19,184 nucleotides of DNA, from positions 1-19,184 of the forward strand of contig CAYHAA010000018.1 of the NCBI GenBank assembly GCA_964354495.1. Reading direction: 5' to 3'. A program made the translations under genes and the position numbers. The stretch comes from an uncultured archaeon (lineage in GTDB: Archaea; Asgardarchaeota; Thorarchaeia; Thorarchaeales; Thorarchaeaceae). Under the pieces are notes generated by a model that was not told the origin of the DNA, did not search any database, and saw only the letters and a program-made list of their open reading frames with translations. This document shows positions 4,028 through 19,184 of the stretch, piece by piece (the stretch's first letter is position 1; each line of letters opens with the position of its first letter).

Positions 4028-4634
4028 CTAAAGCTTGCTGGGAGTCTGATTCTCTTTTTGGAGTTGGTTAATCCTATCTTGATTTATGAGTGATGCAATT
4101 CGAAAGAGAAGATAGATGCAAGTTACAAGAAGTAGCATGCCATCGATGAAAAGCCACACAATAATAGTAGTAAAATAGAATGGCAAACATACCAATACGA
4201 GAGCATTACACTTGTTAAGAATCTTAAACATTATTGGAAGATACTAACAAGAAAAACAATGCGATATCCATTCTTTTTGAGCACAAGCTTGTGAAAAAAG
4301 ATGAAGCTTCTACTAGAACAGCTGGGTTCGTTTCAATATTTGCCAACTCAAACTTCAGGTTTTCAAGTTCTCCTTTCTCCCTTACATCTTCCTGAAGCGT
4401 CTTGCCAGATATAGGAGCATGGCAATTCACACATCTATTTTCAGTAGCTGGGATGTCCATACCACATCTCCAACACTTGTCAGGCTCAATCCTTACGGAA
4501 ACTTCAATGTATTTCCCAAGAGCTGCAAGCTCAGCAACCTTTTGCGAGTCATCACCATATTGAAGATACCACTGTTCGAAGGTTCGACTATGTCTACTAT
4601 GACCTGGCCTCTGTCTGATTGCAGGATCTGGCAA
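4028..4634 (-). pseudogene. Decayed zinc-ribbon/membrane protein gene(s)
   Basis: ORF 4224-4634 has CWRC-x10-CVNC. The overlapping 4028-4231 ORF is two hydrophobic helices. No good start codon, and stops lie just upstream in all frames checked. Confidence 0.4.
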
Positions 4635-5014
4635 CTTACCAATTTTCTTCTAGTAGGTCGATGCTGATTTTCTGAAGAGTGTTGATCATACTCTCTTGCC
4701 TAGGTGTTTACCTATCTTTGACTGTGAGAGTATCTTCTCAAGACATCTGAGGTTATTCGAGTTTCTGAAGCGGTCTGAAACAACGGTCCTCTCCCTTGAT
4801 GTTGTACGTAATAAGGTGTGAAATACTTCAACCCGATCTCAGAGATTAAAACATAGGCATAAGAAACTCTACTCTTAAGAAACCTAACACTTCCTGTTTG
4901 AAAATCGATATAATTCAACAAAACTCCCTCACTTTTAGAGATGAGTTATCTCAACAAAGAGTGGCTTTTTCCCAAAGGGATATGCCCAAATATAGGAACA
5001 GGTTCCCGTATTGT

Positions 5015-10561: not shown

Positions 10562-12919
10562 ATGGGGATGTATTCATCCTATACGTGCAATTCAAAGTTG
10601 AAGATATTGCTTTTTTGGTTGACTGTAAGTGTTCTTATGTTTGTACCGAATGCTGCTCATGCAGAACCTGTTGATACTTTGCAGGACACAGTTGGACCAA
10701 GAGCATGTATACGATACTTTGAAAACTTCACGCTCTGTATTGGGGTAGAGATTCTAAATACATGGTCTAACTCTATTGAAATAACTGAGAATCTTACTCT
10801 TCCTAGGAGTTATCAGGACAGATTTGATGACAACTCAACTGAAACAGAGAATCCATATTTCATTCAGGGAGTCAAAGGAATTGTTGGTAATTGTTCATAC
10901 ATTCCAGGGAGTCAATCAAGAGTGTCAGTATTCCGTTTCTCAATCAATGGCTCTTTTGCAGAGAGTGAGTACTACAATCTTGAGCTGAAATGGGGATTGA
11001 CACCCGCTACTGAAGATACTCTCCAACCAATGCCCAGGTATACACAGAGGTTCAATGTCACACCTTTTGATTGGATTGATCAGGATACAATGTTGCCAAA
11101 AGCAATAGAATGTGAAGGAGGAGAGATAGATTCCACTTACGACCTGAGAATCACCTCGATAGTTCTTCCTGACTCATCAATATGCAAGGGAGATTCTGTT
11201 CTCGTCTATGTCACTGTTCATAACTATGGTTCTTGCAGTCTGAAGGCGTTTTTGAATGCAAGAATCAAGGAGGACAGCGGACTCTATATTGGCTTTGATC
11301 AGGGAGTATGGTCATATTATGGGAACGGAGTGGACATGATCTTTTATGTCTCTCCAGGATATACATATACCTATTATTTTGCATTTGGACCTGTCCTCTA
11401 TGATGACAATAGAGGTATCTGGGCTCTAAATGGGAGAATCGATGCAAGCAGTTATCAGACGGTCTCTCTCTGGTATAAGGTGTACCAGATGAGACTTCGA
11501 GGTTATGCTTCGGGATTTCAAACAACTTTTGACTACTACTGCAGTGAAAGCTTCTATGTCATTCAGAACACTGGGACTCGACGGATATTGGCTGCAGTTG
11601 TTGACGACGAATCTTGTTGGACAAACCCTGCTATGTTCTATGAATCGGTAGTTGATTTTGAAATTCGCATTGGTGAGGGTTGGACCCTTGGTCCGTACAC
11701 AACATTCGAACAAGAATTCGATGTTGATATTCAATTCTTTGATGTTGGTTCGTATGACTGGCTTGATGGTGCCTTAGGACAAGCAAGTGCAGCTGAAGCG
11801 CTTCGAAATTCTGAATATGCACTTGGACAAGGACTGAAACTTGGAGGCAATTGGGTTTCTATATTCGTTATCAATCCTGATACTGAAGACTACAGTTATT
11901 GTTACACTCAACGTGAGAATCATGGATTTGACATTGGTGTCGGACTCCTGCCAGCTGGATATTATTTGCACAGCGGTGAGGGAAACTCTGTTTTCTTAGG
12001 ATCCTCCTGTGTTACAATGGGTGCATATCTACCCGATTATTTCAGGGTCATGGAGTGTGCTCTACATGAACTGTGTCATCTGTTTGGCGCTCTACATGGA
12101 GATCAGTACGGACCGGATTCATTCGGTCCAGATAAAGATGGATATACATATGTAATGGCTGGAGGAACCGGTCGGGATTTATCTCCATGGGTAGGATGGA
12201 GGATGCATACCCTGACAGCACAGAAGATCAATGAGAACAATCATCTGAGGAAGTTTGATGGAGCTCCTGCCCCGGAGTATACGTCTGGAAAGTGGTATGG
12301 ACAGATTGAGTGTCATGTGGTGATGAATGCTAATCATTATGGTGAACCAGTGTACAGACTGGACTCTGATGGATTGTATCATTGGGGTTATAACAGTCAG
12401 AACTACAAACGGTTCTCAGTGACAGATAGTTTCGTATCTGGAATAGAACAGAGTGGGCGGGTTCTAAGCTCAAAGGAGATAGATGCAGAGGTTTCGTATC
12501 CTAATCCGGGGATGGGTTGCTTCTATGCTGCCTACAAGCTCTACTGGAGTTCCAGTCATTGGCCAACTGGATTCTCTCCCAGTCAAGGCATCAAACTGTA
12601 TGTTGTATACTGGTCATGGCAAGATAGTGATACTACATCCTCATCTGTTGATAATGTCATAATGGTAATAATATCATCCAGATCCTCTACTCCATCTCAG
12701 TACTACTCAGCATCCTTTGAGGCTGCTTCTCCAACAGGTGGTTGGAAATACTGTCACAATCAATGGGTTATTCAGGATGACATGAAAGACATCAACCTCA
12801 CAGATTCCACAGTCTATCTTCTACTAGGTTTCCGTGATGCTTGGTCTGCAGACTATCATCAGAAACTTAAGGTGCATCCAATCTGGATTCTATTCGCATA
12901 TACATGGAACAGTTGGTGA
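10562..12919 (+). CDS. Secreted multidomain zinc metalloprotease (metzincin) with a CARDB/Ig-like domain
   Basis: Signal peptide ILLFWLTVSVLMFVPNAAHA; CARDB-like DLRITSIVLP...VYVTVHNYG; HELCHLFGALH (HExxHxxGxxH) followed by a Met-turn-like YVMA. Confidence 0.8.
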   Translation: MGMYSSYTCNSKLKILLFWLTVSVLMFVPNAAHAEPVDTLQDTVGPRACIRYFENFTLCIGVEILNTWSNSIEITENLTLPRSYQDRFDDNSTETENPYFIQGVKGIVGNCSYIPGSQSRVSVFRFSINGSFAESEYYNLELKWGLTPATEDTLQPMPRYTQRFNVTPFDWIDQDTMLPKAIECEGGEIDSTYDLRITSIVLPDSSICKGDSVLVYVTVHNYGSCSLKAFLNARIKEDSGLYIGFDQGVWSYYGNGVDMIFYVSPGYTYTYYFAFGPVLYDDNRGIWALNGRIDASSYQTVSLWYKVYQMRLRGYASGFQTTFDYYCSESFYVIQNTGTRRILAAVVDDESCWTNPAMFYESVVDFEIRIGEGWTLGPYTTFEQEFDVDIQFFDVGSYDWLDGALGQASAAEALRNSEYALGQGLKLGGNWVSIFVINPDTEDYSYCYTQRENHGFDIGVGLLPAGYYLHSGEGNSVFLGSSCVTMGAYLPDYFRVMECALHELCHLFGALHGDQYGPDSFGPDKDGYTYVMAGGTGRDLSPWVGWRMHTLTAQKINENNHLRKFDGAPAPEYTSGKWYGQIECHVVMNANHYGEPVYRLDSDGLYHWGYNSQNYKRFSVTDSFVSGIEQSGRVLSSKEIDAEVSYPNPGMGCFYAAYKLYWSSSHWPTGFSPSQGIKLYVVYWSWQDSDTTSSSVDNVIMVIISSRSSTPSQYYSASFEAASPTGGWKYCHNQWVIQDDMKDINLTDSTVYLLLGFRDAWSADYHQKLKVHPIWILFAYTWNSW

Positions 12920-16144: not shown

Positions 16145-16284
16145 GGGCCGGTAGATTAGCCCGGTAGTCACTGCGAATTGTCGCAGTGGCCAGGAGAGAT
16201 CGCTTCCTTGGCATGGAAGAGGTCGCGAAACTCTGTGAATCTAGTTTTCACGGAGCGCGAGTTCAAATTTCGCCCGGTCCACCA
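16145..16284 (+). tRNA. trnA-GGC: tRNA-Ala(GGC) with two non-canonical introns (D-arm ~16167/8-16195/8; 53/54: 16230-16261)
   Basis: Acceptor GGGCCGG/CCGGTCC with the G3:U70 Ala identity pair plus ACCA; anticodon arm CTTCC-TTGGCAT-GGAAG. Textbook BHB (CGCG/CGCG helix, 9-bp inner stem) for the T-arm intron. Confidence 0.93.
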
Positions 16285-16363
16285 CACTCTTTTTCCACGA
16301 AGAGGAAGACTTACGCTAATGGACATCATATTAAGGTGGCAGGCAAATCGAAAAGCGAGCAGA

Positions 16364-17047
16364 ATGAAGATACTTGCATTCAATGCCAGTCCTCGAAAAT
16401 CTCAGGGTACTACTGACATACTAATGGAGGCTTTCATTGATGGAGCAAGGAAAGCTAATGCTGAGGTTGAGAAGCACTACATCGTTGATCTGGACATAAA
16501 AGGATGCTTGGGTTGTTTCACTTGCTGGTGGAAGACCCCTGGCAAGTGTGTTCATAGAGACGATATGGACTGGATTCTCCCTAGCATCATTGAAGCGGAC
16601 ATATTGCTCCTTGGTACGCCCGTCTATGGTCGCAACATAACACATTACATGCAGCGACTGCTTGAACGTACATTCTCATTGACTCTTCCAGAGATGCAAA
16701 TCAGAGATGGAGAGACCACTCATCCCGTCAGACCACACAGGTCTCTGCATTTAGTCCTGTGTGCCACTTGTGGATTTCCGGATGTCAGCAACTTCAATCA
16801 CATAAGAGCTCTGTATCCAACAGCAGTACACATCCTACTGCCTTCGGCTCAGATTCTTCTCAATGACAATGGCAGAGAGCATCTTTCCGATTTTCTAGAG
16901 GCCACGAGCCTGACGGGGCAAAAAATGGCTGATGGAGAGGAAATTCCAGCGTCTCTGGCTGATAGATTAGTATTTGAGTATTCAGATGAGATGAAGAAGA
17001 ATATCATCGAAGCCCACAATCAGTATAGCGCATCTCGAATTGAATAA
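16364..17047 (+). CDS. Iron-sulfur flavoprotein / flavodoxin-like NAD(P)H-dependent FMN reductase
   Basis: MKILAFNASPRKSQGTT flavodoxin start, CLGCFTCW...GKC Cys motif, LLGTPVY. The track's 16178 start overlaps the tRNA and is rejected. Confidence 0.9.
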   Translation: MKILAFNASPRKSQGTTDILMEAFIDGARKANAEVEKHYIVDLDIKGCLGCFTCWWKTPGKCVHRDDMDWILPSIIEADILLLGTPVYGRNITHYMQRLLERTFSLTLPEMQIRDGETTHPVRPHRSLHLVLCATCGFPDVSNFNHIRALYPTAVHILLPSAQILLNDNGREHLSDFLEATSLTGQKMADGEEIPASLADRLVFEYSDEMKKNIIEAHNQYSASRIE

Positions 17048-17129
17048 CTGACTACAGTAGCTCTTTTGCATATTCATCAGACAAGCACGCACAATGGATG
17101 TATTATTCTAAAACGATTTCACATTTCAT

Positions 17130-17155
17130 GAGTTCAAATCTCGACCGGTCCACCA
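17130..17155 (+). repeat. tRNA-Ala 3'-end copy 1 (att-like)
   Basis: GAGTTCAAATCTCGACCGGTCCACCA, 24/26 identical to 16259-16284. Confidence 0.9.
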
Positions 17156-17292
17156 CTTCTTCTTGTATCGTCGCACCAAGCCTATATACTAGTCGAATAT
17201 CATTCTATCAGAAGCTCCTTCATACTCGAATGAAGTAAAGTGGGAAAACCTGCATCACGAGCACGGCGGATTAGAGGATGTGAGCTGACTCG

Positions 17293-18420
17293 ATGGTAGA
17301 CCAAGAAACTTGGGAGCGTGTTGTGCTCCAGAAACTCGAATTGCCAAATGGCATGATTGCATCAAACCGAATTATGCGGGCTGCCACTTGGATGGGTCAG
17401 GCGGAAGAGAATGGAGTATGCGGGGAGGCAATCATCGAAACTTATGGCAAAATCCAAGCAGGCGTCGTGGTAACCGGTTTTCAATATGTAATGTATGAAG
17501 GACAGACGATTAAGCGCATGATCTCTAATTCAAAGGCAAGCGATGTTGAAGGTCTGAAACGCCTTGCTGGGGCAATTCATGCTTCAGGTGGTCTGGCAGC
17601 AGCTCAATTGGTTCATTGCGGGAGCAAGAGCTTGCCAAAATTGACAGGCAACGATGTAGCGTTTGGACCCAGTGATATGGAGATTCCTCAACCTAAGGGG
17701 GATGTTGTTCGAGTAAAGGCTATGACAGTGGACCATGTAGAAAGAGTCGCTCAGGCGTATGCTGACGCAGCCAAACGTGCAGTTGAAGCCGGATTTGATG
17801 TGATTGAACTACATGGAGCTCATAATTATGGGCTTTGGCAATTCTTTGACCCATCGTTCAATAGACGCCCAGTGGAAGACCCATATACCGGAGTAACAAT
17901 CGAAGGACGTTGTAAGGCGATGGTGGATGCTGTAAGAGCTGTGAAGAATGCGGTTGATATTCCCATTCAGGTGAAGGTGGACTCAAGCTCGAAAATGGTC
18001 AGACCCGAGGAAGTAGGTGAGTTGACAAAGAGGCTTGCTGAAGCGGGGGCATATTGCGTTATATTCAGTGGGCCCAACCCAAGTCAGAACCCGAAGGATG
18101 TAGGTGAGGCGTATTTCTTGGATGACGCAACGATTATCCGTTCGATAGCTCATGACAGTGGTCTCTTGTTCGGATTGGTAGGTGGAATCCGGTCGCCGGA
18201 AACTGTTGTTAAGCTACTGACAGGGAACGGAATTTCAAAGGCTGCTTTCGATGTGATTCAGCTTAGTCGCCCATTGATTAGTGAACCCGCGCTTTTGCAC
18301 CGTTGGACTGAAGAAGCGAAGATCAGTAAACAGGAACCTGCTCGATGCATTTCTTGTAACCGTTGTTTTGCAGCAGGGCTTAGAGGAAAGGTAGAATGCG
18401 TTCAGTTTGAGGGAGAGTGA
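17293..18420 (+). CDS. NADH:flavin oxidoreductase / Old Yellow Enzyme family protein
   Basis: NRIMRAAT, AAQLVHCG, GFDVIELHGAHNYGLWQFFDP..NRR, VGGIRS, LSRPLISEP, and C-terminal CISCNRC...C cluster motif. Confidence 0.92.
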   Translation: MVDQETWERVVLQKLELPNGMIASNRIMRAATWMGQAEENGVCGEAIIETYGKIQAGVVVTGFQYVMYEGQTIKRMISNSKASDVEGLKRLAGAIHASGGLAAAQLVHCGSKSLPKLTGNDVAFGPSDMEIPQPKGDVVRVKAMTVDHVERVAQAYADAAKRAVEAGFDVIELHGAHNYGLWQFFDPSFNRRPVEDPYTGVTIEGRCKAMVDAVRAVKNAVDIPIQVKVDSSSKMVRPEEVGELTKRLAEAGAYCVIFSGPNPSQNPKDVGEAYFLDDATIIRSIAHDSGLLFGLVGGIRSPETVVKLLTGNGISKAAFDVIQLSRPLISEPALLHRWTEEAKISKQEPARCISCNRCFAAGLRGKVECVQFEGE

Positions 18421-18527
18421 TATTCCGAGCTAGCGGAGAACAAGATTCCCATCAGGGAACTAGGATATTCTAACAAGCATGACTATTGAGACCTGAACTC
18501 AGATGAGGGCCAAGAGAGCACATATGC

Positions 18528-18548
18528 CAAATCACGCCCGGTCCACCA
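18528..18548 (+). repeat. tRNA-Ala 3'-end copy 2 (att-like)
   Basis: CAAATCACGCCCGGTCCACCA, 19/21 identical to the tRNA 3' end. Confidence 0.88.
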
Positions 18549-18636
18549 TTTCCTTCTCTATCGAATCTCTATGTTACACGAGAAGTAGTTCAAAGGAACT
18601 GCATTGCCATATCAGCACGAGAAATCTGTCATCCTT

Positions 18637-19116
18637 CTAGAAATCTCTCCTGAAGCTGCTGGCATCCAATATCGCTCTTCCTCTTCTTTGAGCGCAATCC
18701 TCGCATGTTACTCGTTTGGCGGGAACAATTCTATAGCCAACGTGCGTTGTCACTCCCGATTCGTGGTTTGTTGACACAACAAGTCCACACGAGGTCTGGA
18801 ACAACCCCGCCTCAGTTCCTTTCTTCCAGGCCCTCCCTGAGTGGATGGGCCCCCCATTATTGGCAAGAAATGGTTCTCTCTCTCCGAATCTCCTTTGAAT
18901 ATTCCCTCCGCCGAGAATCATAGCGAATCCAATGATTGCGAATCCAGCAAGTATGATGATGTATTCCTCAAAGAGCTCAGGAATGTATTCCCCCATAACC
19001 CATATGCTCCAATAGACAAGAATGGGGATGAATAGTAGCATCGCTCCAATGAATACCAGTATCTTGGCAATCAAGCTATAGAAATGCTCCCTCATCTGGT
19101 TTGCCTTCCAATACAT
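18637..19116 (-). CDS. Hypothetical protein: two N-terminal TM helices plus a small Cys/His C-terminal domain
   Basis: Two hydrophobic segments, then H...TSCG...TCEDC; fills the interval between att-like copies 2 and 3. Confidence 0.7.
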   Translation of the reverse strand: MYWKANQMREHFYSLIAKILVFIGAMLLFIPILVYWSIWVMGEYIPELFEEYIIILAGFAIIGFAMILGGGNIQRRFGEREPFLANNGGPIHSGRAWKKGTEAGLFQTSCGLVVSTNHESGVTTHVGYRIVPAKRVTCEDCAQRRGRAILDASSFRRDF

Positions 19117-19152
19117 ATATTGTTCAAATGAAGAATCGCTGGTGGACTCGAC

Positions 19153-19172
19153 TTCAAATCTGGACCGGCCCC
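19153..19172 (+). repeat. Degenerate tRNA-Ala 3'-end copy 3
   Basis: TTCAAATCTGGACCGGCCCC; 17/20 to copy 1 and 15/20 to the tRNA. Confidence 0.6.
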
Positions 19173-19184
19173 CTGCAACTTCTT

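Follow-up and report, generated by a model that had tools for sequence, protein, structure and literature searches.

Compact gene modules bounded by tRNA-Ala 3' ends in a lineage of Thorarchaeota

The stretch of DNA analysed here (the window) consists of the first 19,184 bases of the 62-kb scaffold C18 (CAYHAA010000018.1) of an uncultured thorarchaeon, whose genome, G000, has a size of 3.3 Mb and is 97.7% complete. Close to the right end of the window, a tRNA-Ala(GGC) gene is followed by three short units, each of which contains one gene and ends in a repeat of the last bases of a tRNA-Ala gene (~23 nt). We are highly confident that this constitutes a modular array bounded by sites of the attachment (att) type, and comparison with related genomes shows that such arrays form a lineage-wide gene-swapping hotspot that is integron-like yet differently built. 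Our favoured explanation, which we consider to have about an even chance of being correct, is an array that is anchored at tRNA-Ala(GGC), comprises three (perhaps four) modules separated by tRNA-end repeats of ~23 nt, is built up by the insertion of circular DNA with a recombinase supplied in trans, and suffers losses from repeat to repeat. The features of the array are listed below; G012 and G006 are genomes of the same genus, and X1, X2 and X5 are public sequencing runs whose contigs were aligned to the window (at most 34% of the sampled words were present in any run).

16145..16284, + strand: tRNA-Ala(GGC) gene with encoded CCA, the head of the array; called as tRNA-Ala(ggc) by ARAGORN after removal of two introns
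16163..16192, + strand: intron 1, in the D-loop, ~30 nt; approximate, as the splice sites are not resolved; brute-force removal yields a valid tRNA
16225..16256, + strand: intron 2, in the T-arm, ~32 nt; approximate; removal yields a valid tRNA, and the intron ends at the start of the repeated segment
16285..17155, + strand: cassette 1, 871 bp; precisely absent from a contig of run X2, with another gene at its place in G012
16364..17047, + strand: gene for an NADPH-dependent FMN reductase / flavodoxin-like protein of 227 aa (Pfam PF03358, E 1.3e-13)
17130..17155, + strand: att copy 1, from the T-loop to the CCA; 24/26 identity to the tRNA-Ala(GGC) 3' end
17156..18548, + strand: cassette 2, 1393 bp; 94% identity to G012 from repeat to repeat, without homology outside
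17181..17188, + strand: TATA-like box (cctatata) in the leader of cassette 2, the Old Yellow Enzyme (OYE) cassette; conserved in an alignment of 19 loci, putative promoter
17293..18420, + strand: gene for an NADH:flavin oxidoreductase of the OYE family, 375 aa (Pfam PF00724, E 1.7e-32)
18528..18548, + strand: att copy 2; its last 20 nt are the exact 3' end of tRNA-Ala(UGC), the gene for which lies on G000 contig C9
18549..19175, + strand: cassette 3, 627 bp; straight after 18548, G012 and contigs from runs X1, X2 and X5 have other sequence
18637..19116, - strand: gene for a membrane protein of 159 aa without a Pfam family (list of open reading frames (ORFs) and Pfam search)
19150..19175, + strand: att copy 3, degenerate; 20/26 identity to copy 1; the 20-nt core has 7 mismatches; lies inside a duplicated 55-mer

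An earlier, sequence-only reading of this stretch had pointed to a tRNA-Ala 3' end that recurs at three places with exactly one gene per interval (orientation +, +, -). This was confirmed, with the copies starting at positions 17130, 18528 and 19150. No matches of the quality of copy 1 are expected, as judged from 200 shuffles, and the sequence CCGGTCCACCA is present three times against 0.15 expected. Apart from the array copies, a search of all 3.3 Mb of G000 on both strands, allowing up to six mismatches, detected nothing but genuine tRNA 3' ends and, by chance, one unrelated site on contig C21; therefore, copy 3 is above chance. In the 20-nt core, copies 1 and 2 each differ from the tRNA at two positions and decay is limited to copy 3. 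Moreover, alignment of the tRNA-Ala(UGC) contig at both places bears out the identity of copy 2, which is another att allele, of the tRNA-Ala(UGC) type, and not an eroded copy. Two proposals of the sequence-only reading were not supported: a steady fall of identity with distance from the tRNA, since copies 1 and 2 are equally distant in the core, and polar addition next to the tRNA, since in five arrays repeat decay does not rise significantly with the rank of the repeat (rho 0.24, p 0.24). The pyrimidine tracts that it had noted directly 3' of copies 1 and 2 are real and general: a logo of 77 distinct fragments shows conservation from the TTC of the T-loop to the CCA, followed by ~10 pyrimidine-rich nt. 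The same logo contains no conserved inverted partner upstream of the repeat, and the repeat is not a palindrome of the attC type.

Comparison with close relatives reveals how the array varies. Between G000 and G012, homology comprises the tRNA gene (84% identity) and then only positions 17134-18559, that is, from repeat to repeat. The place of cassette 1 is taken in G012 by a beta-helix gene, and that of cassette 3 by 3.5 kb with a 2-thiouracil-desulfurase-like gene and a P-type ATPase gene. Three tRNA-Ala fragments bound other genes in G006, where the FMN reductase gene lies behind a 50-nt 3' half of tRNA-Ala(GGC). On a 7.6-kb contig of run X2 (~98% identity), the CCA of the tRNA (16285) is joined to position 17163, such that cassette 1 is precisely missing, and contigs of all three runs depart from the window sequence right after position 18548. 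The same three genes are thus not fixed at this locus among relatives; the content differs in G000, G012, G006 and run X2. These alignments show that modules are gained, lost and exchanged as units, with the breakpoints lying within the repeats.

The pattern extends well beyond this locus. In all 28 genomes of the genus, we counted a 20-mer of the tRNA-Ala 3' end, allowing at most two mismatches and using the reversed pattern as a control. Each of the 28 has 4-19 copies (control, 0), often in runs with a spacing of 0.5-2.3 kb and many of them at contig ends. Among 121 sampled genomes of the phylum, the excess of copies is limited to family f1, that of G000, which points to a lineage-specific agent. 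A set of 35 Thorarchaeota loci contains 123 sites and 89 units. The units have a median length of 1004 bp (interquartile range 761-1537) and a median coding cover of 0.84, and 62 of the 89 (70%) hold a single ORF of at least 60 aa; a few are gene-poor (unit 9 of G010 and unit 5 of G005, 21-26% coding). These loci show the same array pattern with differing modules. The view that the array consists of discrete, recombinase-free and mostly single-gene units, which behave as modules, is supported. No recombinase gene lies within or next to any of the arrays.

G000 and other loci have an intact tRNA at one end and direct repeats of its 3' part around the units. The exception is G044 (the closed chromosome CP070658.1), in which neither the 5' exon nor the anticodon arm of tRNA-Ala(GGC) was found at the array head. 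The G044 array (1758159-1762214) has six sites, carries luciferase-like, LVIVD, Rce1-like and flavodoxin genes as cargo, and has an NMD3 gene upstream.

The arrays of the family draw on a common pool of cassettes: several cassette families recur across genomes (FAM1, FAM2, FAM3, FAM5 and FAM7), with differing positions in the arrays, and the order of FAM2 and FAM5 is reversed between G004 and G010. In the genus arrays first compared, OYE is present in five, as is a family of ~147 aa, and the FMN reductase, a methylase fragment and others also recur. Arrays of G016 and G020 contain the FMN reductase family (FAM3), as does the G006 locus, and the family of the cassette 3 membrane protein (FAM4) occurs between tRNA-Ala(UGC) copies in G011. 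The OYE cassette was compared over 20 Thorarchaeota loci and is flanked by att in most of them. Its homology starts at the left repeat, spans the TATA-like box and the leader, and in many loci ends at the CCA of the right repeat, with both neighbours of the cassette being variable. In distant genomes, including CP070658.1, the repeats of this cassette are decayed yet recognisable. The G011 locus (contig C146, 2357-4074) also contains a perfect 849-bp tandem repeat, the unit of which consists of a full tRNA-Ala(UGC) copy, a FAM4 gene and an ORF of 62 aa; the repeat arose either from a recent duplication or as an artefact of the assembly.

The cargo of the arrays is varied. Proteins with a beta-lactamase-type assignment are represented by one of the serine beta-lactamase family and one with a metallo-beta-lactamase fold. 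Other cargo comprises an APH kinase, AFOR, an AMP-binding enzyme, a luciferase-like monooxygenase, an Rce1-like protease, a flavodoxin, a PLD and TIR pair, repeat proteins of the LVIVD and NosD types and regulators, and many ORFs have no family. In G010 (contig C201, 10048-11691), the first unit behind tRNA-Ala(GGC) is a PLD-like nuclease gene adjoining a TIR-domain gene, a pair that looks like a defence system carried as cargo. The three cassettes of the window have a GC content of 0.45-0.48, equal to that of the genome.

One conceivable explanation is that the repeats are not recombination sites and are selected where they stand as functional RNA or transcription elements, for instance as terminators or as tRNA-like 3' tags of cassette mRNAs. 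Each repeat has the pyrimidine-rich, terminator-like tract of the tRNA gene, and 40 of the 62 single-ORF units are co-oriented with their repeat. However, the gene lies on the opposite strand in the other 22, the repeats are where homology between genomes stops, a tRNA fold would require a 5' half that the fragments do not have, and many copies decay freely. We regard this explanation as extremely improbable. An origin of the repeats by tRNA-primed reverse transcription was rejected as well: the repeat passes position 58 and includes the tract after the CCA, and most genes are co-oriented.

According to our favoured explanation, a module would be one unit with its own leader and promoter-like box, closed by the ~23-nt tRNA-Ala 3' end and the pyrimidine tract. 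The repeats would derive from Campbell-type insertion of circular DNA that bears a copy of the tRNA 3' end, and every insertion would leave the tRNA intact and add one repeat. The unusual AAATTTCGC T-arm (U61) of the tRNA is kept in G000, G012 and run X2 despite a different adjacent cassette in all three, which argues that the exchanges occur, and the crossover would lie, 3' of tRNA position 61. The catalyst would most likely act in trans, as a site-specific recombinase encoded by a mobile element that is episodic or unbinned, and recombination between flanking direct repeats would give rise to the precise losses and to some of the swaps. We favour a recombinase acting in trans in view of the lineage-specific excess of copies and because insertion at 23 bp requires assistance. 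A metagenome scan for the att gave mostly plain tRNA-Ala genes of other organisms. One unrelated archaeal metagenome contig (L105, GC 0.39) carries a tRNA-Ala(UGC) gene with an identical 22-nt end, and a gene for a 421-aa integrase starts ~70 nt after its CCA. This is the classic arrangement, and it indicates that the tRNA-Ala 3' end is a genuine integrase target in nature. The contig has nothing in common with G000 beyond the tRNA end. Among the searched genomes and contigs, it alone combines this att with an integrase; a cognate integrase-bearing element was not found in the lineage.

A number of results weigh against our favoured explanation. In G000, which has no intact tyrosine recombinase, no matches were obtained for PF00589 (Phage_integrase), PF16795 (SSV-type integrase) or NF040815 (XerA), and a search with 16 integrases of the genus gave only a pseudogene in a tRNA-Phe island (window positions 4305-4888) and a short fragment on contig C35. 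Of the 28 genus genomes, 8 have a tyrosine recombinase, 8 have a serine recombinase and 17 have neither; 15 genus contigs with a tyrosine recombinase have no tRNA-Ala att nearby, and a scan of IMG/VR with the 20-mer att for an attP-bearing element gave no match. The logo of the 77 fragments contains no second binding arm and no conservation 5' of the T-loop. At least three different tRNAs carry arrays in G000, which would require several specific recombinases or a generic one. Inheritance is in part vertical, as the identity of shared cassettes tracks that of core genes (G000/G012: 94% for OYE and ~95% for the flanking core genes). Finally, no circular cassette junction, which would be direct evidence of mobility, was seen.

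Other searches for a recombinase gave the following results. PF01548 (IS110) has no match in G000, and PF00239 detected two 201-aa serine recombinases on other contigs, without a link to the arrays. The C35 fragment (88-519) resembles the N-terminus of an integrase; it was discarded as an integrase, being merely a 143-aa ORF. The closed genome G044 has one tyrosine recombinase, located 660 kb from its array. A 2.7-kb contig of G020 (C116, 289-2736) contains three tandem tyrosine-recombinase genes with no tRNA att nearby, and we take these to resemble a 'recombinase in trio' element.

Several of these observations are accommodated by a different explanation, in which no dedicated recombinase exists and the ~23-bp tRNA end together with the pyrimidine tract serves as portable homology for the homologous recombination of the host, possibly stimulated by breaks in the tRNA gene. 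Modules would thereby be deleted, inserted and swapped, both inside a cell and from cell to cell, much as in displacement arrays at the ends of conserved genes. Besides the 17 array-bearing genomes without a tyrosine or serine recombinase match and the arrays at several different tRNAs of one genome, it is favoured by the lack of conservation 5' of the T-loop, with a left repeat boundary that is fuzzy (from ~20 nt to a 50-nt 3' half, some with a T-arm intron), by the fact that precise loss between direct repeats needs no recombinase, and by the match between cassette and genome GC. On the other hand, 20-26 bp is short for efficient insertion, and homologous recombination alone cannot make the first duplicated tRNA end beside a new gene. 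Furthermore, the excess of copies is found in one family only, although recombination and tRNA-Ala ends are presumably phylum-wide. We consider this explanation rather unlikely on balance, and at the same time a serious rival.

Another alternative is that the units are eroded, immobile remnants of multi-kb viruses, plasmids or islands that carried an integrase and were inserted serially at tRNA-Ala, with all but the selected cargo lost by deletion; this would be 'gene capture' of the kind seen in cis-mobilizable elements (CIMEs). Tandem re-use of tRNA att sites by elements with tyrosine recombinases is established in archaea (PMC6563490); CIMEs are by definition decayed elements that lack the integrase and have retained attL and attR (PMC5704250). 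The window itself has a separate, decaying ~10-kb tRNA-Phe island with an integrase pseudogene, a few array units are gene-poor, and many internal repeats are in decay. Typical archaeal integrative elements are 9-23 kb (PMC9897764). However, tblastn of 362 kb of array loci with the 16 genus integrases detected no integrase, and none of the 89 units contains one or a remnant of one, so the possibility raised by the sequence-only reading that the intervals descend from integrase-bearing islands was not borne out. The high coding cover and the predominance of single ORFs also speak against erosion, and an intermediate stage was found in none of the 35 loci. In addition, the same compact cassette with both repeats occurs at differing array positions, and presence or absence changes exactly at the repeats at nearly the strain level. 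Simple decay of large islands fits least, because 0/89 units show a remnant, whereas the neighbouring tRNA-Phe island does; we hold this alternative to be quite improbable. The tRNA-Phe island pseudogene (4305-4888, - strand) is frameshifted, corresponds to residues 137-331 of a 348-aa tyrosine integrase on contig C120 of G015 (77% identity) and was missed by the Pfam-based search of the genome.

Arrays are not restricted to tRNA-Ala. As the sequence-only reading had suggested checking, other tRNAs of G000 have similar structures: a mini-array at tRNA-Leu(GAG) (C21, 26654-28074, - strand) has two 3'-end fragments that bound ORFs of 89 and 167 aa, and one at tRNA-Arg(TCT) (C28, 199-919, - strand) has an ORF of 165 aa, with a fragment where the contig ends. 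A second type of repeat, AAATCACGTCCGGCCCACCA, is present in runs in genus genomes (for example, G023 contig C130, 10153-15282; G006 contig C207, 622-6879; and G002 contig C7, 97962-98823). A tRNA-like gene end (not typed) at position 12154 of G000 contig C28 has a 3' end that matches this repeat, which suggests that there may be arrays at yet another tRNA.

The array is flanked upstream by genes for a peroxiredoxin, a membrane protein and a methyltransferase, and directly upstream there is no recombinase gene. A 100-N scaffold gap (C18, 19185-19284) lies just past the end of the window and has an identical 55-mer on either side; therefore, the sequence across it is in effect continuous. The assembly break falls inside the array, and many relatives likewise have arrays at contig ends. 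Beyond copy 3 there is an accessory TrmO-like gene, and then come conserved core genes, which encode L37e, Sm and PUA proteins, a helicase and FttA. This marks the end of the array, and the suggestion that it might continue past the window edge was not supported. The TrmO-like gene was rejected as a conserved anchor since it is not kept across the genus, in which only G012 and G006 have orthologues. In G012, a degenerate att and extra genes lie behind it, so the gene may represent a fourth module; in G000, no att is present there.

ARAGORN and Rfam called no tRNA in the raw window, because the tRNA-Ala(GGC) gene carries two introns. Intron-like sequence is also present upstream of the T-loop in some array fragments of relatives (locus L028 at 2011, L041 at 5880 and L055 at 4027), and the tRNA-Ala(GGC) heads of G004, G005 and G010 have no intron. 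Several tRNA 3' ends of G000 are preceded by ...GGAAC|AAATC... and not by a T-stem (e.g., C1 103192, C15 66698, C6 89176 and C18 38728), which suggests that many G000 tRNAs may contain T-loop introns that ARAGORN misses. The ARAGORN list for this genome has only 33 tRNAs, some of them spurious.

The arrays share features with several known systems. Like the products of tandem accretion at tRNA sites and CIMEs, they consist of tandem units separated by direct repeats of the tRNA 3' part, with an intact tRNA at one end, and the units lack integrase and transfer genes and keep both att sites. In contrast to these, the units are ~1 kb and mostly contain one gene instead of being multi-kb, and they contain no decayed element genes. 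Further differences are that the lineage yielded no cognate partner with an integrase and that the array architecture is the rule across a whole archaeal family and not an occasional by-product. Integrons have reportedly been described in Archaea by Ghaly et al. in 2022. The resemblance to integrons lies in the compact, mostly single-ORF cassettes, each closed by a repeat like a recombination site, in the diverse and largely uncharacterised cargo, and in content and order that vary among relatives. The differences are that no IntI-type integrase lies beside the array, that the repeat is a tRNA 3' end and not a palindromic attC, that a functional tRNA gene and not attI is the anchor, that genes are in both orientations, that no polarity was detected, and that the cassettes may have their own promoters, as predicted from the TATA-like box.

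She et al. are said to have reported in 2001 on 'gene capture in archaeal chromosomes' by SSV-type elements with a 'suicidal' integrase. The arrays resemble the outcome of that process, in which an element caught at an archaeal tRNA gene stays in the chromosome as permanent cargo with tRNA fragments on its flanks. They differ from it in that their units have no flanking split integrase halves (G000 has no PF16795 match, and the ORFs adjoining the repeats belong to unrelated or no Pfam families) and in that the repeats lie outside the ORFs. As in displacement ('orphan module') arrays of Rhs/CDI loci, a copy of the 3' end of the anchor gene stands between cargo modules, and a recombinase is in principle unnecessary. 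Unlike in those arrays, a tRNA serves as the anchor, the repeat spans only ~23 bp and the cargo does not consist of toxin/immunity pairs. The literature searched contains no description of recombinase-free arrays of ~1-kb cassettes in Asgard archaea.

The genomes of Asgard archaea are large and rich in transferred genes, but little is known about how these genes are acquired. The arrays described here provide a concrete, recurrent and site-specific hotspot across a family of Thorarchaeota, in which small modules of one gene each, diverse in cargo, are stacked and exchanged, and no recombinase is linked to them. In practical terms, the arrays break metagenome assemblies, and tRNA fragments and intron-bearing tRNAs escape standard annotation. 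If the modules are truly mobile, they would represent a second, independently evolved cassette platform besides integrons, and would offer a way to study how single genes acquire a recombination site. A more far-reaching possibility, which we deem unlikely, is that Thorarchaeota have a dedicated gene-capture system, in which tRNA 3' ends serve as universal cassette junctions and single-gene cassettes of ~1 kb are excised and inserted as circles by an as yet unrecognised recombinase family or by the recombination machinery of the host. If so, the closest prokaryotic relatives of eukaryotes would possess an analogue of the integron, and it would be a main route for the flux of their accessory genes.

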